The notes under the pieces are model-generated. The model saw only the letters and a list, made by a program, of their open reading frames with translations, made no database searches and was not told where the DNA came from. Of a stretch of DNA of 64,000 nucleotides, positions 13,254 to 56,209 are shown one piece after another. The stretch covers positions 22,393 through 86,392 of the forward strand of contig JAYZLP010000012.1 in NCBI GenBank assembly GCA_036154155.1. The letters are read 5' to 3'. Every line of letters begins with the position of its first letter. Position 1 is the first letter of the stretch. Made by a program: the position numbers and the translations under genes. Source of the stretch: Thermoplasmatota archaeon. Lineage in GTDB: Archaea; Thermoplasmatota; Poseidoniia; Poseidoniales; Thalassarchaeaceae.

Positions 13254-13262
13254 GGTGATTGA

Positions 13263-15005: not shown

Positions 15006-15008
15006 GTA

Positions 15009-26659: not shown

Positions 26660-26745
26660 TGGTGCAGAGGGCAGGATTCGAACCTGCGAAGCACTTTGCA
26701 CCGGAGCTTAAGTCCGGCCCCTTTGACCAACTCGGGTACCTCTGC
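26660..26745 (-). tRNA. tRNA-Leu(UAA): tRNA-Leu (anticodon UAA), class II with long variable arm, CCA encoded
   Basis: Reverse complement reads GCAGAGG-TA-CCC-GAGTTGGTCAAA-GGG-G-CCGGA-CTTAAGC-TCCGG-(long extra arm)-GCAGG-TTCGAAT-CCTGC-CCTCTGC-A-CCA. There is a 7-bp acceptor stem, anticodon loop CUUAAGC, a GGTTCGAATCC T-arm and discriminator A. Confidence 0.85.
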
Positions 26746-26862: not shown

Positions 26863-29796
26863 GTGTATGCGAGCAGCATAGCGAATAGCGCGTCCCGCCG
26901 TTTCAGGCTGGCTCTGGCACTTTCCCTGCTGATGTTGATGCCCTTTGGCATGCTTTCCAACCATCAATCAGAGCTTCCAGAAGAAGTCAGGATGGAAGCA
27001 GGCTCCGATGTCCAGTTGAACCTCTATACAATGTATTTCGCTTCCCAGAATTCTTCCGCAGGCGGCGATGGTTACATCACAACACAGGTTCCCGAGTCAG
27101 GTGGCCAAGAGTCGATGAGCGCCCTAGACAGCAGCATAGAGTTCCGAACTAGTCCGATGCTGTCGTCTTTAGATGTAGCCGGACGCCCCAATCATGGCTC
27201 CGGCTCCGGATCTTACTACCTGCCACTGGGGCTATTCATGAGGGCGACAGGCCCTGACACTTCCTCTGTGGAGTGGACAATTACACTCAAGTCATCAGGT
27301 AGCCAAGTCGGTTCGGTTTCTTGGAGCACTGATGCATGCAATCCAGGGCTAACTCAGAGCTGTAGTTTCGACCATGAGACATTTGAAATCGACTTAGGGA
27401 ACGACCAGAGATTCACCATAGACAAGGACGAGCGCCTCGAGCTAATCGTCGATGCCGATATGTCTGGTTGTGACAGTAGCGGAAGCCCATTCGGCTCTAG
27501 TTGCGAGGCCGAGGTGGCATGGAATGAGATAGACGGCGACGACAGATTCAGCACCCTGGAGATCGAGGCAAATGCAATATCCAACAGTCTCGTTCTCCTA
27601 CAGAGGGAGGGTGCAGAGCTCGCAGAGGGGCCAGAGTTGGAATGGTTTCCGAATGACATCCTGTCTGAGAGGGTTATGCAGTTCTCTTTCGATGTCAAGA
27701 GCAGTTTTGGCAGGTATGACGTAGACTCGGTAAGGCTATTGATGCGGGATCCCGACGGAATGTACCGGATAGACCACGTAATTGATGAGGACGACGAGGA
27801 AATAGAGGACACAAGCCAAGGCATCTTTGGAGAGTACCTCTGGTCATACCCTAGCGGCATCCCCTCTGGAGAATATTCCGTCGAACTCGAGGTTTCTGAC
27901 ATCCAAGGTAATAGCGTCATAATCGAGCACGAACCCGTGACAATGGAGCAGTGGGGAGTTGCATTGAACCACAGGTTGGATCGAACTACAGAATACATAG
28001 CCCCCGGCCAAACAACCCCGGTTCCACTGCAACTAGTTCACAGGGGAGACTCCACGAAGTCGATGGACGTGGAGTTAGAGGTCCTCACAAACTTCCCAAG
28101 CTCTTGGTTGCTAGAATTCGACTCACCAGGCGGATACACACTCAATGCTGGAGGCGATATTCTGAATCCAATACTCACTCTTACCGCACCCGAGGATCTT
28201 ACAGGTGCCCCAGGCTCCATAGACATCAGAGCCGTTGCAGAAGCAGAGGTCGACGGCGTACTTACCGTTGTTCACCAGGACACCCTTCAGATTGACTTGG
28301 AGAAGATTGACGTTTACCAACCTCCTCAAGTATCCATATGGTCAGAAGACCACGACATCCCAATAGCAAACTCTTCACGCCCCGATGACATTGACTCAAC
28401 CATTCCCAGGTATGTCGACTACGACCAATTCACTCCATTCCTTCTTGAGATTTTCAACACCGGTTTCGATGCTGACACATTCAGGATCGACGTACTACAA
28501 AGATCCAAGTCAATCATTCACGTGTACGATAATGACACTGGCCAGAGAATTCTGGAGGACGAAGGTGACGGCACTTTCCATACGGCTCTCTTGGATAGAC
28601 ACGACACTCAAACGCTGAGGCTGATGATCAAGCCCTCGGCTGACAGAGAAGACCCCGACATCGGCCCGGTCGAGATAGAGGTGGTGAGCTCAGGAAACGC
28701 CTCTCTTAGATCCACGGTACTATTCACTATCCAACGCACATTTGGAATAAGGGCCGAGGTTTCCTATGACTGCGATGGTTCACCACTTGGCCACATCAGG
28801 GTTTCTCTTTGCGACCCCGGACCAGGAAACGCGGAAGTCTCCCTAAGGGCAAAGATCACCAATACGATGACATCCGGGGAATCCGCCACATGGTGGAGGA
28901 TCCAGAATCCAGCTTCATTGGATGATAACACCGATAGAAACGCCGCCTACGGGCAGTGGCAATTCCGGATCGAGGACTCGTCGGGTAATGCCGTCCCCAG
29001 GGTCTCTCTTGCCCCCGGCGACGAAACCGAGGTATTCGTGACCATCACTCTGACAAATCAGGTAGAGTTTGGCAATCACACAGTTTACCTCAGAATAGTT
29101 GAAGATACCACTGATGACGATGCCAAGTACTTCGATCTGCCAATGGTGTTTGAGATTGATCCCGATGACCCCAACTTGGAAATCGTACAAGTAACGCCCA
29201 ATAGACTTCTAGTCCCGGGGGAGTCTTATCCTATCCAGATGAAGGTCAAGAACTTGGGCAATAGCCCCCTCACAGTTCTCTTGGAGGCTGAAGTTGACGG
29301 GACCGGTTGGTCCGTTGACATCGATGGCCCATCGGGATCGGTTCTGATAGTGCTTGGTGCATTCGAAGAAGTCACATTCGTATTGGACGTTAACGTACCC
29401 GACTCTGCAAACAATGGCGAGACCGTAGATGTCCTAGTTTCGGCAACCCCATTCGACACGCAGCAGAGCTGGCCCGATGATGCTACGGCAGAGAAGACCG
29501 TTGTGATGAGGGTAGGTATTTCGTCACTAATTGACAGACTTGTAAACGAGATTACACACCCCCGACTTTCAACCTACATCGTGGGAATAGTTGCAGCAAT
29601 GCTACTCATCGCAGGAATCCAAGGCGCTATGAACAGGAGAAGGTGGAAGGCGCATATGGCATATTTAGATGCAATTTCCAGTGATTCAGACGAGGATTTG
29701 GAAGATGAAGAAGACGATGATTTACCCGCTCCAGTTGTGTCGATAGAAGAGGAAGAGGACGATGTATACGAGGATGACGACATCGAACTGGTTTGA
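26863..29796 (+). CDS. Large (977 aa) secreted type-I membrane surface protein with CARDB-like domains and poly-acidic cytoplasmic tail
   Basis: Signal peptide (LALALSLLMLMPFGML), long Asp/Thr/Ser-rich ectodomain, single C-terminal TM (IVGIVAAMLLIAGIQGAM). Tail is DSDEDLEDEEDDD...EEEEDDVYEDDDIELV. Confidence 0.6.
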   Translation: MYASSIANSASRRFRLALALSLLMLMPFGMLSNHQSELPEEVRMEAGSDVQLNLYTMYFASQNSSAGGDGYITTQVPESGGQESMSALDSSIEFRTSPMLSSLDVAGRPNHGSGSGSYYLPLGLFMRATGPDTSSVEWTITLKSSGSQVGSVSWSTDACNPGLTQSCSFDHETFEIDLGNDQRFTIDKDERLELIVDADMSGCDSSGSPFGSSCEAEVAWNEIDGDDRFSTLEIEANAISNSLVLLQREGAELAEGPELEWFPNDILSERVMQFSFDVKSSFGRYDVDSVRLLMRDPDGMYRIDHVIDEDDEEIEDTSQGIFGEYLWSYPSGIPSGEYSVELEVSDIQGNSVIIEHEPVTMEQWGVALNHRLDRTTEYIAPGQTTPVPLQLVHRGDSTKSMDVELEVLTNFPSSWLLEFDSPGGYTLNAGGDILNPILTLTAPEDLTGAPGSIDIRAVAEAEVDGVLTVVHQDTLQIDLEKIDVYQPPQVSIWSEDHDIPIANSSRPDDIDSTIPRYVDYDQFTPFLLEIFNTGFDADTFRIDVLQRSKSIIHVYDNDTGQRILEDEGDGTFHTALLDRHDTQTLRLMIKPSADREDPDIGPVEIEVVSSGNASLRSTVLFTIQRTFGIRAEVSYDCDGSPLGHIRVSLCDPGPGNAEVSLRAKITNTMTSGESATWWRIQNPASLDDNTDRNAAYGQWQFRIEDSSGNAVPRVSLAPGDETEVFVTITLTNQVEFGNHTVYLRIVEDTTDDDAKYFDLPMVFEIDPDDPNLEIVQVTPNRLLVPGESYPIQMKVKNLGNSPLTVLLEAEVDGTGWSVDIDGPSGSVLIVLGAFEEVTFVLDVNVPDSANNGETVDVLVSATPFDTQQSWPDDATAEKTVVMRVGISSLIDRLVNEITHPRLSTYIVGIVAAMLLIAGIQGAMNRRRWKAHMAYLDAISSDSDEDLEDEEDDDLPAPVVSIEEEEDDVYEDDDIELV

Positions 29797-29869: not shown

Positions 29870-32800
29870 TTGCGTAGCATGGACTCATTTAGTCAATCTA
29901 CAGGGTCGGACAAGGACGGCCTCAGGAAGGTCAGGTCGGCCATTATTTTCTCGGCCCTGATGCTCATTTCTTCGTACTCAGCATTGGAGTTCGCCGCTTG
30001 GGAGGCGTTGGCTTCAACCGATCAGGACGGCGATGGGCTATCTTACGGTCTCGAGTTCTACATCAATACCCAGCCTCAGGACTGGGACACGGACAATGAC
30101 GGTCTTCCTGACGGGTGGGAATGGCAGTACGGACTGAATCCACTCTCTGCTACAGGAGATAACGGATCCACGGGCGATCCAGACGGAGACTCACTTTCAA
30201 ACCTGAATGAGTTGATGTTCGGAATACCCGCGAACTGGGACGACCCAAACACTCCAAATGAGCTGGACAACGGCGTTTGGTGGAATGGCACGGTACCCGT
30301 AAGTAACTGGGACGAGGAAAGCGCCATGCAACTCATACAGGGACTGGGCTCCGACGGTGCTGATGAGGATCCGTGGGGAAACATTTGCTTCAACACATTT
30401 GATGATGACAAGGATGGTATGGTCGACAATTTCGACGGTGACGGTGACGGTGATGCGAACTGCACAAGTGATGACGATGACGGTGACGGCCTCATCGATG
30501 AGGATCCAAATGGTTGGGATACCGACGGTGACGGCATGCCTGATGGATGGGAAGTTGCAAATGGGCTAGACCCAACCTCACGTACCAACCAAGACGGAGC
30601 ATCGGGGGACCCCGATGGAGACGGGCTAGTGAACCTGAAGGAGTTCATTAACCCAGCTTGGGGGACCCGAAATGGAACTACTACCCCGCCCACACAGTAC
30701 TTCAGACCGGGTCCACTTGCCATGACTGCCACCGAATCGCCCTGCAATCCGGTACTGCAACTTGGACCAGGGGGGTGCCTGATATTCACAGCAGAGGTTG
30801 ATGGCATTACTTCTACGGATCCTCAGAATAACGACACTGATGGCGACGGACTCAATGACTCTCACGAAGCACTCGTTCTGCTAACCGACCCAACAGCCCC
30901 GGACACCGATGGTGACGGAATTAGTGACGGTGTGGAGGTAAATGGCCAGTATGGGGACCCTCCCCTGGCAAGCGACCCAAGGGACAACAATACTGACGAT
31001 GACCAGTTTGACGACGGAGAGGAGGACCTCAACGGGAACGGCATCGTGGATGAAAATGAGACAGATCCAACAAGGATCGAGGATTCTGGTGACTTCGATG
31101 ACGACGGCATACCTAACTGGGAAGAAAACATGACATGTACCCTCTGGAATGTTGCAGATACTGACGGCGGGGGTATTAGCGATGGCTCAGAGCTCGACCC
31201 GTCCCACGGAACAGACCCCTGCACTTCGCTTCAAACACTGAACCTGACAATAGTCGACTTCGATTCCACAAACATGATTCTCACGTTAAATGATACATCG
31301 GCACTCGATCAAACACCCGAGGATTGGAGGCAGAATGGTGAACCCATGGGGTACTACGTGTCATCAACAAATGGCAGCCTCACAGGATTCAGATTCACGT
31401 CCATCAATGGCGATTCATTGAGGGGCATAGACACGGACAAGCCACCTGATGCCACATCTGTGACATTTGTCAACTTCTCTTGGTGCTGGGATCAATCCCT
31501 AGGTTTCTCTAACGATCCAATTTGTGACGATGACTATTTCGACACTGATGGAGACGGGCTAGCCGATTGGGAGGAATCTACTGGGAGCTTTGGTTTCCTT
31601 TCCGATTGGAACATGTCAGACACCGATGGGGACGGGGTGAATGACCTAGATGAGATACTCAATCTAACTGACCCGAGCAATCCCTGTGATAACCTTCTGG
31701 ATTCAGATGGGGATGGTCTAAACAACTACTTTGAGAATACAACAGTTTGCTTGATTGCCTTCGGAGAATTGGGCGGAAATGGCACTACTGATACCTACTT
31801 CACACTGTGGAATGTAACTGACACTGACAACGGGGGAGTTACTGATTTCCAGGAGTATCTGGATGGGACGAACCCTCAGAACAATCCTAACGATGACCTA
31901 AATCCAGTGGATACCGATGGCGATGGGATACCGGACACCATTGAGAACTCTACGGGCACTGACTGGAGGGATCCGGATACTGATGGAGGGGGAGTTCCCG
32001 ATGGACAGGAGTGCACGTCCGAGTTTTGGGATATCAATTGTCTGAATGCCGATGGAAATCCGTGGGATCCGACGGATGATATAGACCCCAACATGATGTT
32101 CTTCGAGGCGATGAACACCTCGATGGGGGTGGATCCCAATATCACGCATTACTGGAGGTGGCATACCTATGACTTCTATACCGGGATTTCTTGGGGGGTC
32201 AACACTAGTCTCGTTGGGAATACGCAGATGTTCCCAGGCTTCTCGACCACACAGGGCGTTGCCGATCAGCAGTTCTGGGATGGTTCCGAGGTCCTTGGTT
32301 GGGAGATATCCCTTGAGTCGGGGGCGCTGATATTCCCTGGCGAGGAAATTATCGTACCCCATAACGCCGTAAATTACACTGGTTGGACCGATGCTAATGC
32401 TGGCCTTAACTTCTCGAACTTCACCAGGGATGCAATAGTGGACGGCGCAACCATAGACACGCTCTTCGTTACCGCCCCGCAAGTTCTGATCACCCAGGCG
32501 ATTAGGGAAAATACAACAGAGTTCTCCAATAGCAGCTATGCGACGGACCTCCCAAGCTCATATCTGGCAAAGGGCAATGCCGCCAGCTTCGTCAACTCAA
32601 TCACAATGACAGTAATCAATGAGTCAGGGGCGTTCTCCGCTTGGGACAGGGTATCCGCAATTCAGGACTTCATCATTAATGGCAACTCAACTACCTCTTT
32701 CTTGAGAAACCATAACGGGACCGAAGTCGGAGTCCTCGATGACGAGGATGACCTATCCTATTGGATTCTGAACAACTCGTTTGAGGGCGACTGTGACCAG

Positions 32801-35800
32801 TTCAGCACTCTTTTCGCCGTGATGCTAAGGTCCGCGGGAATCCCCGCCCGCAAGGTCACGGGTTTCTCTGGTGGGAAGTGGACAGGTACTTCTTTCGAGG
32901 TCTACGGCAAGGACTTCACAACTTGGGTAGAGGTGCACCTCCAGACAAACTCCAATCTAGGTAACGCGGATCTAGGATGGATACCCTTCGAGGCATGTCC
33001 ATCCCTGTCTACCGTCGAAGTAGTAGACGAGAGCTGGGGCCCAATCTGGTTCGACAGGGACCTTTCATCAGGCAATATTTCCCTGGATGGAATACTGAGG
33101 TTCACTGAAAACCAGACCTCTGTGGCGAATATTACCATTGACATGTACTTGGTAAAATCCAATCAGACGGAGAATGTCCCCGGTTCCGCTGCATTAGAGG
33201 AGCATTTCGTTGGTACAGCAATTACCGACGAGAATGGTTCCTTCAACATCACAGGGCAGCCCCAAGAGGTCATCAATCCAGGATATGGCGCTCTGGTTCT
33301 TCGAACTTATGAGGATGGATACGTCGGTTCACAGGGGATCACCTTCCCCTGGAGGATGAACATCACTGACGACGTAGCCATGTCCATTACCGAACCAGAG
33401 CCGGTGGATGAGCCAAAGATAGGGATCGGAGTGAACACTACGGTGACAGGCGAGATTTCACTCTCAAGTGAACCTTACAATGACATCACTCAACTGGATA
33501 GCCTACAGGTGGTTCTCAATTACACAACCACAGCCGATGGCCCGGTTAGCCTAATCTCCAGCGTCGGGGCTGGCGGCTATTACGAATTCTCCGTCCCAAT
33601 AGACGAATCTGAACAGGAGGGGCTGATAGCAGCAACCTTGAATTTCCTAGGCTGGCACGAGGAGGATCTCAACAATGCAACACCTCCCCTCTACCACTTA
33701 CGCCCCCAGTCTGTTGGATTCAACCTAAACCTAACACCGGCGCCTAACCTTACCGTAATTCTGGAGGGTCACGGGGCCAACAACACCATACTTGAGATCG
33801 ACCAGCCAATATACCTCAACGGAACTGTTCTGAGTAGGTCGGCCATCCCCGAGGCACTCAATGGCACTCTGACACTGCAGATGCGAAGATCCGCAGCCAA
33901 CGGGCCCTTTACAACCCTCAACTCGTGGTATCTTAACGACTCCGATTGGACGGGGGCCCTCGGGCAATTTGCAGTCAATTGGTCCTTCTCTGCATCAGAG
34001 GTACCCATTCCCGCTGGACTGGTAGAGATTCGTTACCAGTTCGAGGCGGACGGCCTCTTCGCGAAAGACGAGTCTGTGGTAATCGATGAGCACGGAGTAA
34101 AGAGCTACGTAAATTTCAGCTATATTCTGAATCCAGCTCCCGTGGGGTCAGACTCCGAGGTAGAAGTGACATTGTCAGACCATACTGGAAACTCCGTTGC
34201 GAGCTTCGTCGGGGACTACACATTGGACTTCAACGGCGAATTGGTATGGAATCAGTCAGATCCAGAGCTCCCGCGCGTGATGGTAACATGGAGGCCCACT
34301 ATAGACGTGGAGGCAGGGGACTACCCGTGGCAGCTGAATTATAGCGGGTCCACATGGCTTCTTCCAAACAGCGTGTTAGATACTGTCAGAGTCCAAGGCA
34401 GAGCCGACGTCTCATTTACCCTGGGCTCGGACTGGACCCCTAGAGGGCAATCATCATGGATTTCTGGTTTCGCCAGGGATATCAATCTGAACAGTACGAT
34501 TCTAGGAAATAACTCTTCCATCATCGTAAACATGGAGGTGCCATCCGACCAACCGCCTACTCCAGATGGCCTGGAAGCTCCACCTGTCACCTACAGGCTG
34601 GGGGAGCAGTGGATAGACAACACTACCGGCGAGTACAACATTACATTCCAGATGCCTAGCGGTGTAGGTGCCGGCGTCTACGACCTCAGGCTGATCCTTG
34701 ATTTCGAGAAGAACCCCCCCGCAGGTGGCGCATACTACCTTGTTTCCGGTGCAGTGGTGCTGCAAGCAGGCGTACAGACCGAGTACGTAGTGGAGGCAGA
34801 GCCATTGCAGTCCATCGTGATTGCAGGACAGACACTGGTAACGAATGCCACAGTCACCGATGTGGAGAGCAATGACAGGCTGCAGAACACCACCGTCGAC
34901 ATTTACTTCGATTGGGGAGGGCCACTGCAGCAGGTACTCAACTCCACAGTCACTGGTTCCGATGGCGTCGCAAGGTTCACTCCGACCATTCCTGCTGACG
35001 CCCCGCCCGGGTACTACGATGTCCGTCTACACGCACCGGATGACCTAACTGATAGTTTGACTACACCCAATGCAGGCAGGTGGATAGGGAATGAGAGCAC
35101 AGTGAACCTCACCGTGCAGGTCGCGAGTAGCATCAGAATTGACAATGCGCCATTGCCTGAAGTCACCGCCGGGCAATTTTTCCAACTGCAGGGGCAGGTC
35201 CTAGATGGGGTGGACCAGAATCGTTCAGTATCGGGCCCCATGACGCTGGAGGTCTTTTTCCTGAACGACCCCAGTGAAACCCTGGTCACAGGGCATGTCA
35301 CCGCAGCTAACGGATCGTTCTCTATAATGGTGCCAACTGATCCACTGGGGGATGGCGTGACTAACGGCCTCAAGACCGTCATAGTAAGCGTTGAAAACGG
35401 TAGTACCCCGTTCTACCTTACTGGTTCCGGGAATGAAACCATCCTGGTTCGAGGAGTCACCCAGTTCACTGAAAGGAACCCCCTACTCAATACAATAGTG
35501 GACAGGGGGACATCCATCACATTCGGAGCAAAGCTGGTAGAATCTAGCGATGGGGACAGGCAACTTTCCGACATGTCGGTTTCCGCATTATTCCACGAGA
35601 CGTGGCTAACCCCCGAACAACCGACAAATGGACAAGGCGTCGTCAACTTCACATTCTCAGTCCCTCATTCACATCCACTCGGTTTGATCCCGATAGTTCT
35701 GATGTTCAATGGCTCAAATGGTTCAGACACTCTCCATCCATCATCCACGGTTATCAACACAATCACAGTCAGGTCTCCAACCAACATTACGTTCGATCCA

Positions 35801-38800
35801 ATTACTTCCAACCCTGCTGCAGGGGAGTTCCTCGACATTAGTGGAACTTTGACTTCAAGTAATGGAAGTGGAATAGTTGACAGATCAGGAAATGCCCTGA
35901 ATCCGACTCTAAACTTCGCCATCGACGGGGACACCAATTCGTTCTCAGTCACTGGTGGCACCGTAGATGCCAATGGCACATGGTCGGCCAGAATCTTCCT
36001 GGACCTTTCTTTCCCACGTGGTACGCACAATATCACCGCCTCATATACGCCGTCCGTCAACTACTATGGCGCCAGTTCGGAGGACGGAATTTTTGACAGC
36101 AGAGGTTTCTCCATGCTATCCATAATTTCCCCAACTGATTTGGACCCCGATGAGAGAACTGTCAGAGGGGACAACATCACACTCAACATGTCATTGATTG
36201 ACAACTCCGGGCAGTTCGTCTCCGGAGCCCAGGTCGATGTTTCCATAGACGGGACGCCAGCATGGTCCGGCCTCACGAATGAGGATGGCATCGTCACTAC
36301 TGTAATCCCGACTGATTCCAACAGGGCTCCCGGACCGATGACAATCACCGCCACATTTGCAGGCTTCAATGGGACCACTGGCCTACTGGGTGATGAGACA
36401 TGGACAAGAGTGGTGATACTCGCCCCAACGGTTCTAGATGTGACTTCAATTACAGGCTCCGCAATCGCAGGCGAGTCAGTCACGTTCACTGGAACCCTGC
36501 TGGACGAGCATGGTGCACCCCTGATCGAGAATGGCGAAGAAAAGGGAGGTGTCGTCCACCTTTCCATAGATGGAATCGACGTAGGTCCTGTGTACACTTC
36601 AATTTCAAACTCCTCTACTGGGATTTGGAGCATTACTTACGATTTACCTCTTGATACAGACTATGGGGGCCACACTTTCACCGTCGACTTCCTCGGCGGT
36701 TTCACTTGGGTCGATCCCATGGGCCAGGGCGACTCCCTGAATCCAGAATACTATCTCCCCTCCACAATAACACAGGAATTCAACGCGACCCAGACATCCC
36801 AGGTTGTTCTTACGACCCCCCCAGGGGAAGTCGACAGGAACGAGCTGCTTCTCATAGAGGGAATGCTGACCGATGGCGCCGGAAGGGTACTTCCCGGACG
36901 AGATCTAGATGTCTATATGAACGACCAATTCCTAACATCCCTCTCTGTATCCGACAATGGTACGTTTAGCTTATTCTTCCCCGTACCTCCGGACATGCCT
37001 CTCGGACCAAGGAATGTTAGGATAGAATTTGGTGGAGAGGAGTTCGTAATCGCCTCTAACTCTAGCACTATTTTCACCGTTTTCGGTCCTGTCGAGGTGA
37101 GTGTTGAACAACCGGTTCCGGTCGCTGTTGGAGACGTACTACAACTCAGTGGTTCCGTCAAGGATAACCTTCCGAATGGGTGGCTTGGAAACCACTCGCT
37201 CCAGATCTTTATTGATGGGATCCTGATAGGCACTACTACTACTGATGAGGACGGGGCATGGTCCCATTCTTGGGTAGTATCCGAGTTCCTAGACGTGGGT
37301 CAGCACACACTCACGGTAATAGCCCCGGATCAGGGATATCACCGCGAAGGCTCCGTAGAGGCAAACCTGACAATAGCATACCACACCGGAATGACACTGC
37401 AAGTCGAGAACAATGTGGTGACAAGGGGCGGCGCATGGAACCTAAGTGGTAGGCTATTCGACGCCGACTCTGACGGCAATCCAGGTTTGGAGGGCAGGGT
37501 GCTTTCCTTCCTGCTAGATGGTGAAGAGGTTTCCACCATTACTACAAGCATAGATGGAACATTCAGCATTAGTCATGAACTGGGTTACCTGATTTCAAGG
37601 GGTTCACACGATGTATCATTGGCCTTCGCCGGCGAACAGCTGTACCTTTCAAACGTGATCAATGCGACTGTGTATGCCAGAGCCGACATTCAGATAGAGA
37701 TTCTATTCCTTGAGGATGAGGTCGTCAGAAGCGATGGAAATAGGCCGATTAGGGTTCTCGGCAGGATAATTGAAATCGGTGGGGAGGGCAACACCATGGA
37801 GGAGATGGACCTCTCGCTATACTGGGAGGATTCTCTAAGGCCGAATACGAAGATAACATGGGATGAGACAACAGGGCAGTTCCTGGTCGAGTCGAATGCA
37901 ATTTCAACAATGCCTCCTGGTGTGGCCAGCATGTCGATAGTTGTGGACCCCGACTCCTCAAGGTTCCTGAATGGGGGCGAGATTGATTTCGAGGTGATAA
38001 TCAAGGTTCCAGTGAACTTTGAGTTCCTCCCCGACTCTTTGTTCCTAGAAATAGGTCAAAGCTCCATGTCAGGAAAGGTGAATGTCACTGCCACGGACAG
38101 GGCCGAGGTCATAGAAGGAGTTTCGATTACCGCTAGGCTAGTCAACGAGACCAGTACACATTTCACTGTGGTAGGGGTCACCGATCAGAATGGCATCTTC
38201 ACATATCAGTTCGAGTCATTCCATGAGAACCATCCTCTATGGGACAGGGACTTCTGGGGGGACTTGTCGGTAGAGTTCAGTTCCGATTCCGACATTATCG
38301 ACCCCATTGACGCTGCTCGACTCTCACAGTTCGCCGTTGTCGATGTAGAATATCAGCCGGAGCAGGGGGCATCATTGGTGGGCCCTGCAATGACCGCACT
38401 AGCCATCCTTGTGATAATCGGACTAGCCGCGGCTGGCGTAATTGTGCTAAGGAGGAGGAAACAGGCTGCCATCGATGAGCTAGCAGGGGTGTTCAGCTAC
38501 ACAGCAGAGCTCTTGGCAGCAGGAGATGAGGTCAGGGAGGCTATATTCAACTGCTATGAGGGACTCTGTCAGATACTGATGAGCAGAGGTTTCCTGAGGA
38601 GAGATTTCGAGACAGTCAGGGAGTTCGAGCTAGCAATAAGAAACGCACTCCCAATAAGCGAGCAGGCATTGTTGTCTCTCGACAGAATTTTCGAGGAGGC
38701 CAGATACTCAAGCCACGTTCTCGGCGAGCCCCATAGGGAGAGTGCCCAGATGGCACTGAGCTCAGTTCTCCAAGAGATAGACCAGCTCGAGGAAGTCCCA

Positions 38801-38833
38801 TCTAGGGAGGCCTCAATAGTCCCTCAGGAATGA
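29870..38833 (+). CDS. Giant (2987 aa) surface protein: signal peptide, TSP3-like Ca-binding repeats, transglutaminase-like core, many Ig/CARDB-like domains, C-terminal TM plus DUF4129-like cytoplasmic domain
   Basis: Uninterrupted 8.96-kb ORF. Repeated DTDGDG(I/L)PDGxE motifs. Transglutaminase-like core GDCDQFSTLFAVMLRSAGIPARKVTGF...TWVEVHL...GWIPFE. C-terminal TM ALAILVIIGLAAAGVIVLRRRK. About 125-aa cytoplasmic tail. Confidence 0.75.
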   Translation: MRSMDSFSQSTGSDKDGLRKVRSAIIFSALMLISSYSALEFAAWEALASTDQDGDGLSYGLEFYINTQPQDWDTDNDGLPDGWEWQYGLNPLSATGDNGSTGDPDGDSLSNLNELMFGIPANWDDPNTPNELDNGVWWNGTVPVSNWDEESAMQLIQGLGSDGADEDPWGNICFNTFDDDKDGMVDNFDGDGDGDANCTSDDDDGDGLIDEDPNGWDTDGDGMPDGWEVANGLDPTSRTNQDGASGDPDGDGLVNLKEFINPAWGTRNGTTTPPTQYFRPGPLAMTATESPCNPVLQLGPGGCLIFTAEVDGITSTDPQNNDTDGDGLNDSHEALVLLTDPTAPDTDGDGISDGVEVNGQYGDPPLASDPRDNNTDDDQFDDGEEDLNGNGIVDENETDPTRIEDSGDFDDDGIPNWEENMTCTLWNVADTDGGGISDGSELDPSHGTDPCTSLQTLNLTIVDFDSTNMILTLNDTSALDQTPEDWRQNGEPMGYYVSSTNGSLTGFRFTSINGDSLRGIDTDKPPDATSVTFVNFSWCWDQSLGFSNDPICDDDYFDTDGDGLADWEESTGSFGFLSDWNMSDTDGDGVNDLDEILNLTDPSNPCDNLLDSDGDGLNNYFENTTVCLIAFGELGGNGTTDTYFTLWNVTDTDNGGVTDFQEYLDGTNPQNNPNDDLNPVDTDGDGIPDTIENSTGTDWRDPDTDGGGVPDGQECTSEFWDINCLNADGNPWDPTDDIDPNMMFFEAMNTSMGVDPNITHYWRWHTYDFYTGISWGVNTSLVGNTQMFPGFSTTQGVADQQFWDGSEVLGWEISLESGALIFPGEEIIVPHNAVNYTGWTDANAGLNFSNFTRDAIVDGATIDTLFVTAPQVLITQAIRENTTEFSNSSYATDLPSSYLAKGNAASFVNSITMTVINESGAFSAWDRVSAIQDFIINGNSTTSFLRNHNGTEVGVLDDEDDLSYWILNNSFEGDCDQFSTLFAVMLRSAGIPARKVTGFSGGKWTGTSFEVYGKDFTTWVEVHLQTNSNLGNADLGWIPFEACPSLSTVEVVDESWGPIWFDRDLSSGNISLDGILRFTENQTSVANITIDMYLVKSNQTENVPGSAALEEHFVGTAITDENGSFNITGQPQEVINPGYGALVLRTYEDGYVGSQGITFPWRMNITDDVAMSITEPEPVDEPKIGIGVNTTVTGEISLSSEPYNDITQLDSLQVVLNYTTTADGPVSLISSVGAGGYYEFSVPIDESEQEGLIAATLNFLGWHEEDLNNATPPLYHLRPQSVGFNLNLTPAPNLTVILEGHGANNTILEIDQPIYLNGTVLSRSAIPEALNGTLTLQMRRSAANGPFTTLNSWYLNDSDWTGALGQFAVNWSFSASEVPIPAGLVEIRYQFEADGLFAKDESVVIDEHGVKSYVNFSYILNPAPVGSDSEVEVTLSDHTGNSVASFVGDYTLDFNGELVWNQSDPELPRVMVTWRPTIDVEAGDYPWQLNYSGSTWLLPNSVLDTVRVQGRADVSFTLGSDWTPRGQSSWISGFARDINLNSTILGNNSSIIVNMEVPSDQPPTPDGLEAPPVTYRLGEQWIDNTTGEYNITFQMPSGVGAGVYDLRLILDFEKNPPAGGAYYLVSGAVVLQAGVQTEYVVEAEPLQSIVIAGQTLVTNATVTDVESNDRLQNTTVDIYFDWGGPLQQVLNSTVTGSDGVARFTPTIPADAPPGYYDVRLHAPDDLTDSLTTPNAGRWIGNESTVNLTVQVASSIRIDNAPLPEVTAGQFFQLQGQVLDGVDQNRSVSGPMTLEVFFLNDPSETLVTGHVTAANGSFSIMVPTDPLGDGVTNGLKTVIVSVENGSTPFYLTGSGNETILVRGVTQFTERNPLLNTIVDRGTSITFGAKLVESSDGDRQLSDMSVSALFHETWLTPEQPTNGQGVVNFTFSVPHSHPLGLIPIVLMFNGSNGSDTLHPSSTVINTITVRSPTNITFDPITSNPAAGEFLDISGTLTSSNGSGIVDRSGNALNPTLNFAIDGDTNSFSVTGGTVDANGTWSARIFLDLSFPRGTHNITASYTPSVNYYGASSEDGIFDSRGFSMLSIISPTDLDPDERTVRGDNITLNMSLIDNSGQFVSGAQVDVSIDGTPAWSGLTNEDGIVTTVIPTDSNRAPGPMTITATFAGFNGTTGLLGDETWTRVVILAPTVLDVTSITGSAIAGESVTFTGTLLDEHGAPLIENGEEKGGVVHLSIDGIDVGPVYTSISNSSTGIWSITYDLPLDTDYGGHTFTVDFLGGFTWVDPMGQGDSLNPEYYLPSTITQEFNATQTSQVVLTTPPGEVDRNELLLIEGMLTDGAGRVLPGRDLDVYMNDQFLTSLSVSDNGTFSLFFPVPPDMPLGPRNVRIEFGGEEFVIASNSSTIFTVFGPVEVSVEQPVPVAVGDVLQLSGSVKDNLPNGWLGNHSLQIFIDGILIGTTTTDEDGAWSHSWVVSEFLDVGQHTLTVIAPDQGYHREGSVEANLTIAYHTGMTLQVENNVVTRGGAWNLSGRLFDADSDGNPGLEGRVLSFLLDGEEVSTITTSIDGTFSISHELGYLISRGSHDVSLAFAGEQLYLSNVINATVYARADIQIEILFLEDEVVRSDGNRPIRVLGRIIEIGGEGNTMEEMDLSLYWEDSLRPNTKITWDETTGQFLVESNAISTMPPGVASMSIVVDPDSSRFLNGGEIDFEVIIKVPVNFEFLPDSLFLEIGQSSMSGKVNVTATDRAEVIEGVSITARLVNETSTHFTVVGVTDQNGIFTYQFESFHENHPLWDRDFWGDLSVEFSSDSDIIDPIDAARLSQFAVVDVEYQPEQGASLVGPAMTALAILVIIGLAAAGVIVLRRRKQAAIDELAGVFSYTAELLAAGDEVREAIFNCYEGLCQILMSRGFLRRDFETVREFELAIRNALPISEQALLSLDRIFEEARYSSHVLGEPHRESAQMALSSVLQEIDQLEEVPSREASIVPQE
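30020..32100 (+). repeat. Intragenic array of about 20 thrombospondin-type-3-like calcium-binding repeats (DxDxDGxxDxxE) in the giant gene
   Basis: Repeated gayacygayggngayggn-type codon strings encode DTDNDGLPDGWE, DPDGDSLSNLNE, DTDGDGMPDGWE, DTDGDGISDGVE and similar. Confidence 0.6.
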
Positions 38834-39303
38834 TCTTCCAGGGACAATCCCAAGGTGTGTCCGTTCCATGATGCATCCGAAATGAATGACCCAGTAGGAA
38901 GTCTGAAAGTCCTCAAAACTCCTCCAAAACCACTGGGCGCGATAATTCGAGCTATAGTGCCAGACTCGCCCTCCATGACTTCGAGGACGACCCCCCTTCT
39001 ATTCGCCGAAGGCATTGGAATCTCCATGTAGCTACCCTCTATTGAACCTCCTAGGTCAGCAACCATCTCGCCTATAGTTGTGACATCGCTGTTCGCCATC
39101 CTAGTCGACTCAGGAATGTCTCCAACCTGCCCCTTGAATTCCTCGTGGGACTTCGAGACCTCAGACATGTGCGGCAGGTCAGAGAGAAACTGCGCATGTG
39201 CTTCCGAGGCGGTAACATCGAGGCCCAAACCGACTCCTTGGAATTCATTTTCCGTAACAGCACCGCCGTCTGAGTCGGCAATTACAACCCTCCTCCACGT
39301 CAT
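38824..39303 (-). CDS. Hypothetical protein (about 160 aa) downstream of XPD helicase
   Basis: ORF-track entry 38824..39375 trimmed to the internal M (MTWRRVVIADSDGG) to avoid overlapping the helicase 3' end. No recognised motif. Confidence 0.35.
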   Translation of the reverse strand: MTWRRVVIADSDGGAVTENEFQGVGLGLDVTASEAHAQFLSDLPHMSEVSKSHEEFKGQVGDIPESTRMANSDVTTIGEMVADLGGSIEGSYMEIPMPSANRRGVVLEVMEGESGTIARIIAPSGFGGVLRTFRLPTGSFISDASWNGHTLGLSLEDHS

Positions 39304-39328
39304 GCTATCGTTGCCCCCAATGGCCCGA

Positions 39329-41350
39329 CTAAGATGAACCCATTGATTTAGGTATCCGGAAGAATCGCTCAACATGTTTGCCTGTTCTAGAGGGGCTAGA
39401 TGTCCTCAATGAGTCCATTGACCCGGGCATACAATCCCTGCTCCTTCCTTCCAGGAGCCTCTTCTCGAGAAGTACCACTATAGCCCTATCTTCTGCCTTT
39501 CTTATGGGTCTCCCGAGTGCCTGTAGGACGCTGTTTACGGCCGGCTGCAGACTTGCATACTTCCATGCCCTTGATCTCCCGAACCTGCTAGTGTAGTATC
39601 CAAACAGTGCCTCCTGCTTGGCACTGGGCGGGGGTAATGGGAGGCCAATGCAGACCACGGCATCAAGGATGTTGTCAGAGTAATCTATCCCTTCTGACAG
39701 TTTGCCGCTCAATACTCCGAAAATCACAGAATTCTTCCCCATCGACCTAAGTTCGTGTAGCCTATTGACCATTCCATCAACTGAGCGCTTGGACATGCCC
39801 CTTTCCTCCTTCAGGCGATGCCTCCCGAAGACGTACCCAGTCTCTGACGCAATCCTTTCCATCATGGAATAGCTGGGGGCGAAAATTGCAACGTTACCTG
39901 GAGTTTTTTCCAGAACGGAAGTTATGTGTTGGCTAATGGTCCCGAAACTCGACTCTCTCTCCGAGAACTTGCTCGTTACATCGCTGGCAATTAGTACATG
40001 TCTATTTTCAGGGGGAAATCCCGAATTGTACTCCTTGCCCCTATATCCTTCCTCGTGTATCCCTAGGATTTCGCAATACATAATTGGGGGAAATAGTGTT
40101 CCCGACATCAGAATTGAGCCAGCACACTCTTCGAAAATGGGGCCACCTACAACTCCTGGATCCAGTAAATGACTCGAAATCCGGGGCTCTTCCAATATGT
40201 TGTCGAACACTAATGCAAGGGCATCGCTATTTCTGTATTTGATGCAAACGTCCAGCATTTCCGCAAGTCTGATACAATCGTTCTGCTCTTCTTCTTCCAG
40301 TGAGTCGTCATCATCTATTTTCACCCTCATCAAGTTCCCAATCATTTCTCGGATAATCGAGATTTGATCGTTCGTCGAATCATCAAGCCCGACTATGGCG
40401 TTGCCTATGGCACCTAGGAACTCATTTGTCTCGATCCGTAGGTCATCCCAGTCAGACTCCTCGTTTTCCACGGTCTTGCTGTCGAACCATTTTCTCAGCA
40501 CAGTGTCATCTCTGAGGGCCTTAATCTGCTTCTCCAGCTTAACAGCGTCTCCGAAACCATATGCTTCACCGGTATCTAGCTGCAAGGCAACTTTCTCCAG
40601 GTTTCCCTTGTATTCCTGGACATCACTCAGCGCCCTTCTGAATACCTGATCAGTAATCCTTCTTTCCAATCCATTCCTGATTCGATCTGGTAGGTTATGG
40701 GCTTCATCAACTATCAATATAGACTCATTTAGATTAATCCCCATGGCCGGAAGTGAGCTTTCTCTGACTTCCTCGATGAAAATATGATTATAGTCACAAA
40801 CCAATACATCTGTATCTCTGGCAGCTGCCCTAGCGGCAGCCCATGAGCACACCCTTTCTTGCTTGCCATACTTTATTCCCCACTCGACATGCCGAGGCTC
40901 TGACAGGATAATGTCCTTCATCCTGTTTCTTTTTCTCTGCCTGCCCTCCTCCGTCGACTCCTTTTCACAGTTGCATTTACCGGTCGATTTGTCGATAACA
41001 TCACACATCCCCTCCCTTCCAATGATATCAACTAATTTGACTCTCGAAATTCCCGTTGGAAGCCTCGAGTTGATCATTTTGACGGTGTCAACAACGATCC
41101 TATGTTGCGATTGCCTACCTGTCATGAAAACAATCTTCGGCTTCAAACCCTCTTGGGACCTATCATTTGCAACATGCAATGCGGAAGCCAAGGACGCCGC
41201 AGTCTTGCCTATTCCTGTGGGCGCGGCAGCCAGCAGGGCTCCTCCTGATAGCAGGGAGTCTATTCCGTCCCTGATCATCTCGATTTGGGAGTCCCTCATC
41301 TTCTCATGAGCATGGTAAACTCCCAGATCCGGGGTATCGGAAGTGGTCAT
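39329..41350 (-). CDS. xpd: XPD/Rad3-family (DinG-like) 4Fe-4S DNA helicase
   Basis: Walker A AAPTGIGKTAASL and DEAH box VDEAHNLPD. Cys residues of the FeS-cluster insertion (GMCDV...GKCNC...RVCSW...LVCDY). Length 673 aa. Confidence 0.8.
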   Translation of the reverse strand: MTTSDTPDLGVYHAHEKMRDSQIEMIRDGIDSLLSGGALLAAAPTGIGKTAASLASALHVANDRSQEGLKPKIVFMTGRQSQHRIVVDTVKMINSRLPTGISRVKLVDIIGREGMCDVIDKSTGKCNCEKESTEEGRQRKRNRMKDIILSEPRHVEWGIKYGKQERVCSWAAARAAARDTDVLVCDYNHIFIEEVRESSLPAMGINLNESILIVDEAHNLPDRIRNGLERRITDQVFRRALSDVQEYKGNLEKVALQLDTGEAYGFGDAVKLEKQIKALRDDTVLRKWFDSKTVENEESDWDDLRIETNEFLGAIGNAIVGLDDSTNDQISIIREMIGNLMRVKIDDDDSLEEEEQNDCIRLAEMLDVCIKYRNSDALALVFDNILEEPRISSHLLDPGVVGGPIFEECAGSILMSGTLFPPIMYCEILGIHEEGYRGKEYNSGFPPENRHVLIASDVTSKFSERESSFGTISQHITSVLEKTPGNVAIFAPSYSMMERIASETGYVFGRHRLKEERGMSKRSVDGMVNRLHELRSMGKNSVIFGVLSGKLSEGIDYSDNILDAVVCIGLPLPPPSAKQEALFGYYTSRFGRSRAWKYASLQPAVNSVLQALGRPIRKAEDRAIVVLLEKRLLEGRSRDCMPGSMDSLRTSSPSRTGKHVERFFRIPKSMGSS

Positions 41351-45661: not shown

Positions 45662-47857
45662 TCATTCACCTCCCGTAATACCTAGTCCCGGGATCCTAGT
45701 TTTTTCCTCTAGCCATCTTAGAATTAGGGCAAGAGTCCATGTGACCACGAAGTAGGATATCAGAACCATCCCCCAAGCATATGCATACTGGAACGTACTC
45801 GCAACGATCAACTTGCCCTGCCTAGTAAGCTCTGCATACCCAATTATCATGGCAAGGGACGAGTTCAATACCAGATTCACCATCTCATTTCCCATCGGAG
45901 GGATGCAGATCCGAATCGCCTGAGGCATGATGACTCGTCGCATAGTTTGCAAATATGTTAGGCCAATGCTCCTTCCTGCTTCCATCTGGGCCGAAGGTAT
46001 TGCCTGAATCGCCCCTCTGATGGTTTCGCATTGGTAGGCACCAGAATTGAATCCTAGTGCGCATATGGCACTGATGAATGCTGAGTCGTAGAGTACTCCC
46101 CCTATCAGCGTCCCATAATTGTCTTCAGAATGGTCGTATGTGGCAATAATGTCCGTCAGGAAGTTATGATTATTTTCCAGATTATCGAAGCTAAAAATTT
46201 CCAGTCCGGGTTCCTGGATAAGGGCCCCTAGCCTAAGGCCGAAATGGATGAATAGGAACTGGACAATTAACGGAGTGTTACGGAAGAAGTCTGTGTAAAC
46301 GGTCGCTATTGCGTTCAACGGTCTGACCTTCCAAGGATTTAGGGCGAATGGTCCAACCCTTACTTTCGAGAAATTACCATCATTGCTCAGGAATAGTGTA
46401 CCTAGGAACAATAGCGCAATTCCCAGAAGTATTTTGGCGAAAGAAACAGGTGCGCCAACTGGAAGGAAAACATACTCAATTCCCTGCAGCCCTAGATCAC
46501 TAGCCCCTGGTATGGCCGAATAAAATAGGTACAGTCCGCCTGCTAGAAGTGGAATCCCAACTAATCTGACATACTTAGCTTCGTAACGTTCTACAACGTA
46601 CCTAAGTGATGTCGGGGATGTTTTGCACATTGCAAGGGTGACTCCCAGTAGGAATCCCAGGATAATTCCGAATGCGACTATTTTCAGTGTCGCGATGAAT
46701 CCTGATAGGAACATTGCCTTAGTCTCATCAACAAAGACTCCGAAGTTCCCATATTCCGGTACGACGAATCCTAATTGATCGTCTGCACCAGCATTCTCGG
46801 TCCACAGTATCTTGCCCCCGTCGCCAACTGCAACGCCATTGAATCCAGTCAGCATTACAATGTCGTTGAAGTCACTATTGTTTCCAAGTGGGTTAATCTG
46901 CTGAGAAACAATTGTTCCGCCATTGATGCTCATTGAGATGTAGCCGCCTTCACCGGTCATCAGAAACTTCGACGTTGTTACTACTTCAATCGAAGTCAGC
47001 ACGACGTCAAGTGTCTCCGGACCAAGGACATATTCGTTCGATCCAGCGGGATAGTGCCTCTCGAACTCTACTAGTGTCCAAATGTACCCTACATCAGTCC
47101 CCGTCACTACGTTACTCATCGAGATTAGAATACTCCCATCATTCGTAATTGCGTAAATCCTAGTGGGGCTGTAGAACTCCACCGAGACGATTTCAGCATC
47201 ACCCGCTCCTTCGGGCGCCTCACGATACTCCCAACTTCCCCCTCCATCATCGGAAAATAGGATGGTTCCATCCGAGCCAACCACAATTCCTAGATTCTCA
47301 TCGAGAAACGAAACACCCAGTAGATCACTTTCTATGGACAGGTTTGTTTCCGCCCACGTCCCCCCCTCAAGATTCCATATTGTTCCATGGGCTCCCACGG
47401 CAACGGCGGTTTCACTCCCGGTCAACGAGATTCCATTCACAATAGATCCTTCGGGAAGGGAGATGTCTGTCCAAAGATCTCCACCGCTCTTCCTAAGCAT
47501 CATAAGTCCATTTTCTCCCGAAACCAGCAAGGACCCAAAACCCGAGTCCGAGTTTAGAATGTCACTTGTCGTGGGAGAATCGTAGGCAGCCCATGTAATT
47601 CCATTGTCATCACTGTGTAGCATCGCACCCCCTGTTCCGAATGCCCAAATTACGCCTTCAATTTCAGTAGCAGTAAGGAGATCCTCAGAAGTCCCGCTTT
47701 CTACTACTTCCCAACTGCTCTTGAAATCAGAGGCCTGGCTTGGATTCACTGAAGTCAATAGGAGTATCACTATTGAAATGGAAATTATGTTGGCAGCGCC
47801 CCTCATTCTTGTTGAATCGGAGAGCCGAGAATCCTCTTCGAACATGGTGAGCCCCAT
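45662..47857 (-). CDS. Fusion protein: N-terminal extracellular Ycf48/BNR-like beta-propeller domain plus C-terminal polar-amino-acid ABC permease domain
   Basis: Signal peptide, then repeated SxDxGxTW BNR-type motifs (SDDNGITWAAY, SDDGGGSWEY) over about 370 aa. After that a multi-TM permease with EAA loop motif EAGRSIGLTYLQTMRRVIMPQAIRICIPPMGNE. The true start may be MRGAAN at 47809. Confidence 0.7.
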   Translation of the reverse strand: MGLTMFEEDSRLSDSTRMRGAANIISISIVILLLTSVNPSQASDFKSSWEVVESGTSEDLLTATEIEGVIWAFGTGGAMLHSDDNGITWAAYDSPTTSDILNSDSGFGSLLVSGENGLMMLRKSGGDLWTDISLPEGSIVNGISLTGSETAVAVGAHGTIWNLEGGTWAETNLSIESDLLGVSFLDENLGIVVGSDGTILFSDDGGGSWEYREAPEGAGDAEIVSVEFYSPTRIYAITNDGSILISMSNVVTGTDVGYIWTLVEFERHYPAGSNEYVLGPETLDVVLTSIEVVTTSKFLMTGEGGYISMSINGGTIVSQQINPLGNNSDFNDIVMLTGFNGVAVGDGGKILWTENAGADDQLGFVVPEYGNFGVFVDETKAMFLSGFIATLKIVAFGIILGFLLGVTLAMCKTSPTSLRYVVERYEAKYVRLVGIPLLAGGLYLFYSAIPGASDLGLQGIEYVFLPVGAPVSFAKILLGIALLFLGTLFLSNDGNFSKVRVGPFALNPWKVRPLNAIATVYTDFFRNTPLIVQFLFIHFGLRLGALIQEPGLEIFSFDNLENNHNFLTDIIATYDHSEDNYGTLIGGVLYDSAFISAICALGFNSGAYQCETIRGAIQAIPSAQMEAGRSIGLTYLQTMRRVIMPQAIRICIPPMGNEMVNLVLNSSLAMIIGYAELTRQGKLIVASTFQYAYAWGMVLISYFVVTWTLALILRWLEEKTRIPGLGITGGE

Positions 47858-56137: not shown

Positions 56138-56190
56138 CAGAGTCAAATTTGGTTTTCGTAACCCACTTGAACGTTCGCCCCATATTCTCA

Positions 56191-56209
56191 CTCAGACCTA
56201 CGGTCTGAG
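56191..56209. promoter_or_regulatory. 8-bp inverted repeat (CTCAGACC-TAC-GGTCTGAG) followed by ATATAT in the divergent region between the giant surface-protein gene and the rpoE operon
   Basis: Read directly: ctcagacc tac ggtctgag, then catatatc. Confidence 0.3.

Follow-up and report, generated by a model that had tools for sequence, protein, structure and literature searches.

The window analysed here is a stretch of 64,000 nucleotides from a Thermoplasmatota archaeon of the order Poseidoniales (family Thalassarchaeaceae; assembly GCA_036154155.1, contig JAYZLP010000012.1, positions 22,393 to 86,392 of the forward strand), and on its plus strand, at 29879..38833, lies a gene for a giant protein of 2,984 amino acids (aa). 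The predicted order of its parts is a signal peptide or anchor, a region of calcium-binding TSP3 repeats, a transglutaminase-like (TGase-like) core of the TgpA type, a long Ig-like stalk, a transmembrane (TM) helix and a DUF4129 domain. This order had been proposed in an earlier reading of the letters alone (the sequence-only reading), and it is borne out by Pfam, regular-expression, hydropathy and profile evidence. We lean towards the view that the protein is a conserved, single-locus envelope protein of the Poseidoniales (marine group II, MGII), in which a non-catalytic TgpA-like module belongs to a calcium-dependent tether with coupling through DUF4129. The TGase-like domain keeps its fold and its nucleophile Cys, is without the catalytic His in every orthologue and has gained an invariant second Cys. 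Because that His has been lost, the giant protein appears more likely to be a calcium-binding tether or adhesin than an enzyme.

The reading frame runs uninterrupted from 29870 to 38833 on the plus strand and comprises 2987 codons counted from the TTG at which the mechanical open reading frame (ORF) begins, which is the length of 2987 aa that the sequence-only reading had given. The frame stands, and the protein is probably slightly shorter. Translation most likely starts at the ATG at 29879, since the N-termini of orthologues (MDSF.., MGSF.., MSSF..) agree with that codon, and the product would then be 2,984 aa followed by the stop; all residue numbers used here count from that ATG. A scan of one genome per GTDB species gave 218 stretches encoding a relative, so that at least 218 species-representative genomes encode one, and 80 loci were kept, nearly all of them labelled as Poseidoniales, Thalassarchaeaceae, MGII or with a broader archaeal name. 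The ORF is complete in 59 of the kept loci, with a stop-to-stop length of 2,982-3,017 aa in nearly all, and the 59 complete orthologues are colinear with the window protein at 55-69% identity over the full length. Conservation among orthologues was counted over 60 compared sequences, and in 54 of these the mature length, measured from the mature N-terminus, is 2,933-2,948 aa; another two of the 60 carry about 105 extra residues, approximately the size of one Ig unit. A contig of the metagenome-assembled genome 'Euryarchaeota archaeon UBA438', a close relative but not the same genome, has 95.3% nucleotide identity and a gene of identical length. The ratio of non-synonymous to synonymous change (dN/dS) between the two is 0.028 over all 2,984 codons (47.5 non-synonymous vs 448.5 synonymous differences), with 0 non-synonymous and 25 synonymous changes in the TGase core and 0 non-synonymous changes in the C-terminal domain. 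The giant gene is therefore functional and under strong purifying selection.

Most database homologues of the giant protein are short fragments, auto-annotated as 'transglutaminase domain-containing' or 'DUF4129 domain-containing' proteins, and in two long-read assemblies the gene is broken into 4-6 called genes. Both observations could be taken as signs of a chimeric assembly, in which separate genes were fused across repeats into the 9-kb ORF, an idea that is almost certainly wrong. The 59 colinear orthologous ORFs of the same length come from independent assemblies, no direct DNA repeat of 25 nt or longer is present inside the ORF, and dN/dS is very low along the whole length. The pattern in the two long-read assemblies points to uncorrected frameshift errors, as the pieces together span the same ~8.95 kb and genes nearby, XPD among them, are broken up likewise. 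An assembly artefact, which the sequence-only reading had asked to have checked, is thus refuted. A recent repeat expansion of the gene was likewise ruled out, as there are no DNA repeats and the Ig units resemble one another only weakly (hhalign E 1e-7 at best).

The TGase-like (papain-fold) core occupies aa 901-1045 (32579..33013, plus strand) and was delimited with Pfam, phmmer, Foldseek and hhalign. Transglut_core (PF01841) matches aa 960-1039 with 49.3 bits against a gathering score of 23, and the best PDB match of the core found by phmmer is 6g49, the periplasmic domain of Pseudomonas aeruginosa TgpA. When an AlphaFold model of the core was used as the Foldseek query, 6g49/6g4h again ranked first (E 8e-8), followed by 3isr, a putative cysteine protease of Cytophaga, and 9crn. 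Profile-profile comparison of the core with bacterial TgpA-type proteins by hhalign gave 99.6% (E 6e-24), colinear with the match of the DUF4129 region, and the non-archaeal sequence matches carry PF11992, PF01841 and PF13559. The kinship with bacterial DUF3488-TGase-DUF4129 proteins that the sequence-only reading had drawn is upheld by these results. The core is modelled at a pLDDT of 70-90, and in the model a helix begins with C972 (model residue 253) and a strand begins at T1014, a predicted placement that is the one found in papain-fold enzymes.

Animal transglutaminases carry the motifs H-x-W-x-E and D-P-T-P around their active-site residues. The bacterial TgpA-type motif DAH[AS]W.E....GW.PFDPTP aligns with DFTTWVEVH...GWIPFEACP in the archaeal protein (DF[TS]xW across archaeal proteins), and this alignment maps the nucleophile Cys to C972 (32792-32794), the catalytic His to T1014 (32918-32920), the Asp to E1038 (32990-32992) and the Thr of DPT to C1040 (32996-32998), all on the plus strand. 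Position 1014 is Thr in 47 and Ser in 13 of the 60 sequences and His in none, and position 1015 is Arg, Thr, Ser or Trp. The residues H762, C972, W1016, E1018, E1038 and C1040 are invariant in all 60. The deeper orthologues P0143-P0151, which are 2,700-3,088 aa long where complete, follow the pattern C-[S/T/N/D/A/L]-[E/D/N]-x-C, with the second Cys always present and with His never found. Since Chloroflexota relatives, the nearest outgroup, have C-H-E or C-H-D followed by P-T in most of their cores, a Glu at the third triad position is normal for this giant branch, and the archaeal clade stands apart in having lost the His and gained a Cys at +2 from the acidic position. C1040 replaces the Thr of DPT/EPT only in the clade without His. 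The canonical Cys-His-Asp (or Glu) triad is thus incomplete, with Cys present and His absent in every orthologue. C972 and C1040 are the only Cys residues between aa 722 and 2891, every other Cys of the ectodomain belongs to an invariant close pair, and the former active site probably holds a structural C972-C1040 disulfide. From these patterns we infer that canonical catalysis has been lost and that the domain is a putative pseudo-enzyme, possibly locked by the disulfide. The sequence-only reading had left cross-linking, proteolysis and an inactive scaffold side by side as possible functions, and the evidence now leans towards inactivity, with the His missing in all orthologues.

An alternative is that the TGase-like domain is still an enzyme, in which Cys972 serves as the nucleophile with a non-canonical base (H762 or E1018/E1038) and which cross-links, deamidates or cleaves envelope or substrate proteins at a distance from the membrane. 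Neither the orthologues nor the deep relatives show any change at C972, H762, W1016, E1018 and E1038 do not vary among the 60 sequences, the core shows no non-synonymous change, and the periplasmic domain of TgpA is active in vitro (PMC3507681). However, the position of the catalytic His is variable (Thr, Ser, Asn, Asp, Ala or Leu) and is never His, and the nearby H1020 is replaced by Gln in 10 of the 60 sequences and by Gln or Lys in some family members. Of the possible bases, E1038 is Asn or Asp in deeper members, and H762 lies in a region that the model could not place (pLDDT <50). Moreover, the second invariant Cys arises exactly in the clade that lacks the His. We therefore regard a surviving activity of this kind as unlikely, though not negligible.

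Returning to the tether that we favour, its attachment to the cell is predicted to lie at the C-terminus, where a single TM helix (aa 2835-2857; 38381..38449, plus strand) would hold the giant protein in the membrane with DUF4129 on the cytoplasmic side. The helix is the sole strong one in the protein (Kyte-Doolittle maximum 2.81) and is followed by RRRK, which fits the positive-inside rule; its identity across orthologues is 25%. The AlphaFold model of the C-terminus consists of a long TM helix that runs into a four-helix bundle (pLDDT 79). The bundle, the predicted cytoplasmic DUF4129 domain, covers aa 2865-2965 (38471..38773, plus strand) and was delimited with Pfam, hhalign, the model and conservation. 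Pfam DUF4129 (PF13559) matches aa 2892-2960 of the giant protein alone with 24.4 bits, just under the cut-off of 24.8; PF13559 is present in nearly all of the 120 homologues listed for the C-terminus, and hhalign of the region against bacterial TgpA C-termini gave 94.5%. On the combined Pfam, homologue and profile-profile evidence we accept membership in DUF4129.

DUF4129 is the most conserved domain of the protein, with a mean identity of 82% (vs 57% for the stalk and 25% for the TM helix). Its C2892-x4-C2897 motif (38552-38569) and H2946 (38714-38716) are invariant in the 60 orthologues and are not conserved in bacterial TgpA C-termini; these residues may form a metal or redox site. The fold itself gave no functional clue, as the best Foldseek match in the PDB had an E-value of 0.054 (a HEPN protein) and was followed by FAT- and PsbQ-like bundles, all of which we took to be non-specific.

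The conservation of DUF4129 and its homology to the TgpA C-terminus also fit another explanation, in which the protein is a functional equivalent of TgpA. The MoxR ATPase and the DUF58/vWA protein would then be encoded elsewhere in the genome, DUF4129 would be their docking site, and the ATPase would remodel or regulate the ectodomain from inside the cell. Strict linkage to MoxR and vWA genes has been reported for YebA/TgpA-like genes in bacteria and archaea (Zhang and Aravind 2012, PMC3495828; PMC6803598), and a giant Chloroflexota relative, P0158 (2,801 aa; locus L083, on an ERZ21830300 contig of 2.35 Mb, gene 8001-16406), has MoxR and DUF58 genes 2.6 kb downstream. However, Pfam found no AAA_3/MoxR, DUF58 or VWA match in the scanned window ORFs of more than 150 aa, in agreement with the sequence-only reading, and tblastn with the MoxR and DUF58 proteins of L083 found no match beyond that source locus in the window and 86 loci (1.59 Mb), the rest of the genome not being searched. 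Besides L083, these loci were 85 others, 84 of them related; the search reached 7-10 kb around the gene in the related loci, and neither MoxR nor DUF58 genes lie near the deep orthologues L084 and L085. On these local results we consider the explanation improbable.

The giant protein is predicted to be exported, on the basis of an N-terminal signal or anchor, 85 N-X-S/T sequons and paired invariant Cys residues in the ectodomain. The signal peptide or uncleaved membrane anchor (aa 1-45; 29879..30013, plus strand) is conserved in orthologues and has a basic n-region, RKVR, followed by the hydrophobic stretch AIIFSALMLISSYSAL and then by ALA|ST; hydropathy places the only hydrophobic segment of the N-terminus at about aa 21-40. 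It is followed by the acidic, calcium-binding TSP3 repeat region (aa 46-725; 30014..32053, plus strand), which was recognised from Pfam, a regular expression and charge. TSP3_bac (PF18884) matches 7 stretches with 45 bits against a cut-off of 25 (E 9.6e-12), and the strict expression Dx[DN]x[DGN]Gxx[DNS]xxE finds 14 motifs between aa 70 and 711. The region has a net charge of -144, contains 12 invariant Cys residues arranged as six close pairs, and has 74% mean identity to orthologues. The pre-core region (aa 726-900; 32054..32578, plus strand) carries the invariant motif YWRWHTYD, which includes H762, and is modelled with low confidence, pLDDT falling below 50 around that residue.

Between the core and the TM helix lies the stalk of Ig-like beta-sandwich domains (aa 1046-2830, ~1,750 aa; 33014..38368, plus strand), which was identified by Pfam, profile self-comparison and BLASTP. 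Big_3_5 (PF16640) matches 5 stretches with 72.7-73.7 bits against a cut-off of 35.5, the best Pfam match of the stalk being at aa 1978-2068 (35810-36082), and Big_1, CarboxypepD_reg, MG2, Big_7, Big_13 and GEVED match below their cut-offs. The sequence-only reading had called these domains Ig/CARDB-like; CARDB (PF07705) itself has no match in the giant protein at E up to 1. Profile self-comparison resolves at least 12 mutually similar beta-sandwich units that are distantly related to one another, and the stalk as a whole is 57% identical across orthologues. The 85 sequons compare with 32 +/- 5.7 in shuffled sequences and with 76-96 per orthologue, a load that fits a heavily N-glycosylated archaeal surface protein. 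All 16 Cys residues of the protein are invariant in the 60 sequences and fall in close pairs. No PGF-CTERM, archaeosortase or other S-layer signature of NCBIfam was matched by the whole protein or by its C-terminus.

How might such a protein work? One possibility, and the one that we prefer, is that the long Ig-like stalk presents a distal head composed of ~680 aa of calcium-loaded TSP3 repeats and the TgpA-like module. The TgpA-like domain would not carry out canonical thiol catalysis, be it cross-linking, deamidation or proteolysis. With C972 and C1040 joined in a structural disulfide, it would instead be a putative structural module, or a putative binding module for a ligand or a component of the envelope. 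The whole would form a calcium-dependent tether that connects the cell to a particle, one cell to another, or the envelope to the membrane, and the state or position of the tether may be coupled through DUF4129 to a conserved cytoplasmic partner. That partner would not be encoded beside the gene, unlike the MoxR and DUF58 proteins at typical TgpA genes (Zhang and Aravind 2012) and near the L083 giant.

Several points weigh against the tether as we have drawn it. An adhesin would not usually be of constant length or under strong purifying selection, and the term adhesin-like of the sequence-only reading is not established for a protein that is length-invariant, encoded at a single locus, under purifying selection and present across the order, unlike typical variable adhesins. 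If the N-terminus stays in the membrane, the head would not be distal and the ectodomain would form a loop. The proposed C972-C1040 disulfide is drawn solely from a pattern of conservation that goes back to a single evolutionary event, and the invariance of C972, W1016, E1018 and E1038 would be compatible with a retained non-canonical activity too. Finally, the genes for MoxR and DUF58 may lie in another part of the genome.

With its near-constant length and very low dN/dS, the protein looks more like a structural part of the envelope than like a variable adhesin, and there are two ways in which such a role might be envisaged. The protein could be a core structural element of the MGII envelope, for instance a pillar or spacer associated with the S-layer, with a fixed length that determines how far an outer layer stands from the membrane. 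Its occurrence in at least 218 species representatives, its colinear alignment at 55-69% identity, its narrow range of mature lengths (2,933-2,948 aa in 54/60), the dN/dS of 0.028, the heavy sequon load and the rigidly syntenic location in the core genome all speak for this idea. On the other hand, no S-layer, PGF-CTERM or archaeosortase signature of NCBIfam was found, a length of 3,000 aa combined with a cytoplasmic domain is atypical of S-layer proteins, and to our knowledge nothing is known of the MGII cell envelope; a pillar of this type is very unlikely on these grounds. The other way, which is speculative and to which we give a modest chance, is a length-calibrated envelope organiser rather than an adhesin, with an Ig pillar of fixed length (+/- 15 aa in 54/60 sequences), an ex-transglutaminase, locked by a disulfide, as its binding head, and a link to the cytoplasm through a DUF4129 domain that replaces MoxR-DUF58 or acts independently of it. 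If this were true, the TgpA/MoxR/DUF58 module would here, for the first time, have become a purely structural transmembrane tether.

Whichever role the tether plays, the giant protein has to be placed within the wider TgpA family, whose members had been described as small in the sequence-only reading, a generalisation that does not survive. An exhaustive profile search retrieved 15,964 proteins with E <= 1e-3, 546 of which had E <= 1e-10, and the best matches after the orthologues are proteins of 1,300-3,870 aa, which rank ahead of the bacterial TgpA proteins of 650-760 aa. These large relatives have five N-terminal TM helices, 2-5 tandem TGase cores, HEAT repeats, Big_3_5, Big_1, CarboxypepD_reg and MG2 domains, a late TM helix and often DUF4129; P0158, P0165, P0167, P0179, P0181, P0185 and others belong to this class. 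Two relatives are named by NCBI, as 'HEAT repeat domain-containing protein' of Chloroflexi/Chloroflexota, and these are the sole organism names attached. In some of the tandem cores of the Chloroflexota-labelled giants the Cys is replaced by Ser, Ala or Gly. BLASTP identity between the archaeal protein and the Chloroflexota giants amounts to 30-38% for the core, to 31-32% for DUF4129 and, along as much as 660 aa of stalk, to 23-25%. As the core, a stretch of stalk and DUF4129 are common to both, the layout of core, Ig stalk, TM helix and DUF4129 either predates the archaeal lineage or has been exchanged with it, and TgpA-like giants are not unique to archaea.

The likeness to the Chloroflexota giants extends to size (2,000-3,700 aa) and to the order of a TGase core, a run of Big_3_5/CarboxypepD_reg/MG2-type domains, a TM helix and DUF4129. 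Unlike the archaeal protein, those giants have the five N-terminal TM helices, the tandem cores and the HEAT repeats, lack TSP3, keep Cys-His-Glu/Asp in most cores, and have MoxR and DUF58 genes at the one locus examined. The Poseidoniales version is thereby marked by four features, namely a TSP3 head, a single core without His, the lack of a multi-TM N-terminus and the lack of adjacent ATPase genes.

The comparison with TgpA of P. aeruginosa (PA2873) and the YebA-like family leads in the same direction. Shared are the homologous extracytoplasmic core followed by a TM helix and a cytoplasmic DUF4129 domain, and a weak colinear match between the pre-core region and the part of bacterial TgpA before the core (hhalign probability 51%, E 1.5e-4). 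TgpA is a protein of 668-688 aa with 5-6 TM helices and an N-terminal DUF3488 domain, and its periplasmic domain has transglutaminase activity in vitro (PMC3507681). In contrast, the N-terminus of the archaeal protein has a single hydrophobic segment, its core is preceded by 680 aa of TSP3 repeats and separated from the TM helix by ~1,750 aa of Ig-like domains, and Pfam finds no DUF3488 (PF11992) match in the protein. TgpA keeps the Cys-His-Asp triad, whereas the archaeal protein has lost the His and gained a second Cys, and TgpA/YebA-like genes are reported to adjoin those for MoxR and vWA/DUF58, neither of which is near the archaeal giant gene. Because two family features are present (the TgpA-type core, and the TM helix with DUF4129) and three are absent (DUF3488, the triad and the MoxR/DUF58 neighbourhood), we file the giant protein as a divergent variant that descends from the TgpA/YebA-like family and would work in a similar way, and not as a regular member of it.

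TGase-like domains that are catalytically inactive are found elsewhere, with erythrocyte band 4.2 and Rad4/XPC as examples. Further inactive TGL domains, such as those of the ciliary CC2D2A/MKS6 type, have a disrupted triad and were predicted to be peptide-binding modules (Zhang and Aravind 2012, PMC3495828). The archaeal core shares with such domains a retained papain/TGase fold and a disrupted triad. The inactive eukaryotic domains, however, are cytoplasmic or nuclear and have usually lost the Cys, whereas the archaeal domain is predicted to be extracellular and has kept the Cys and lost the His. A TgpA-type membrane transglutaminase is linked to an FN3 surface adhesion protein in the PFNA cluster of Bifidobacterium (pkb2-fn3-MoxR-duf58-tgm; PMC6803598). 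There the FN3 protein and Tgm are encoded by separate genes in an operon with MoxR and DUF58, whereas in the archaeal protein Ig-like domains are fused to the TGase module and no ATPase genes are present at the locus. Acidic calcium-binding TSP3 repeats are also found in Myxococcus CglD and MtsD, a likeness that is confined to the repeats; the giant protein was rejected as an equivalog or orthologue of either, as the partial, TSP3-driven NCBIfam matches score 81 against a cut-off of 400 and 52 against a cut-off of 800. For the Poseidoniales/MGII themselves, genes for thrombospondin proteins have been read as adhesion factors (Rinke 2019, PMC6461757; likewise PMC8821943), and MGII genomes hold proteins with calcium-dependent adhesion domains (PMC4511931). 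Full-text searches of the literature found no description of the giant protein, in agreement with the sequence-only reading, nor of its degenerate active site or of giant Chloroflexota relatives, and no relevant paper that treats transglutaminase together with either Marine Group II or DUF4129, or MoxR together with MGII. The giant multi-TGase proteins of Chloroflexota are thus apparently undescribed as well.

The gene content of the window is archaeal, with eRF1, class I LysRS, NOG1, XPD, an Rpb7-like subunit and a D-aminoacyl-tRNA deacylase of archaeal type, and the whole region is rigidly syntenic core genome across the order. The genes around the giant gene are, in order, those for 2-oxoacid dehydrogenase E1, lipoyl synthase, an SDR protein, FolB, tRNA-Leu and a 977-aa protein, then the giant gene itself, a small conserved ORF, the XPD helicase and an HD protein. 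The gene for the 977-aa protein (26863..29796, plus strand) is separated by 73 bp from the TTG at 29870 and by 82 bp from the ATG at 29879. Its product is a predicted type I membrane protein that has a signal peptide and beta-sandwich domains as well as a C-terminal TM helix, and its cytoplasmic tail is strongly acidic; its matches to NPCBM_assoc, Ig_VWA7 and choice-of-anchor T are weak. In about 70 related loci this gene directly precedes the giant gene, and it does so too in the distant L084, whose other neighbours are different; in L085 (GCA_964342465.1) a gene for a 483-aa PIN/Zc3h12a-type RNase (8318-9769) stands between a 1,021-aa upstream gene and the giant gene. This suggestive arrangement means that the 977-aa protein may be a partner of the giant protein, although adjacency is no proof of a functional link, because all nearby genes are syntenic.

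On the other side of the giant gene, a convergent ORF of 183 aa (38824-39375, minus strand) overlaps the giant stop codon by 10 nt; 71 related loci have it at ~30% identity, its place is always ahead of the XPD helicase gene, and neither Pfam nor NCBIfam gives a match for it. The tRNA-Leu gene (anticodon TAA; 26660-26745, minus strand) lies between the FolB gene and the 977-aa gene. Locus L082 (PBAZ01000027.1) is labelled 'Chloroflexota bacterium isolate SP4360' and has the full Poseidoniales synteny (E1, LipA, SDR, FolB, 977-aa gene, giant gene, the 183-aa ORF and XPD), and it is probably a misbinned archaeal contig and not a bacterial copy of the gene. Elsewhere in the window there is a second giant surface protein (50507-56191, minus strand; 1,894 aa) with FG-GAP repeats, CARDB and NPCBM_assoc. 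A 731-aa fusion (45662-47857, minus strand) joins a BNR/Ycf48-like (PSII_BNR) propeller to a BPD_transp_1 ABC permease domain, an unusual pairing, and adjoins an ABC ATPase gene. In a protein of 600 aa (15009-16811, minus strand), an N-terminal SAP domain occurs together with an M28 peptidase domain.

The uncultured archaea of marine group II rank with the most abundant microbes in the surface ocean, and the TgpA-MoxR-DUF58 module is unexplained and is essential in P. aeruginosa. The Chloroflexota-labelled giants with several TGase cores form a large-protein branch of the TgpA family that has apparently not been described. The Poseidoniales protein offers a natural experiment for the TgpA-MoxR-DUF58 module, since it retains the TGase and DUF4129 parts although the catalytic His is gone and no ATPase genes lie next to its own gene. 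A gene that takes up about 9 kb of a small genome, whose length and sequence are conserved across 218 or more species representatives, and on which purifying selection is very strong, must have a central function at the surface of these archaea.

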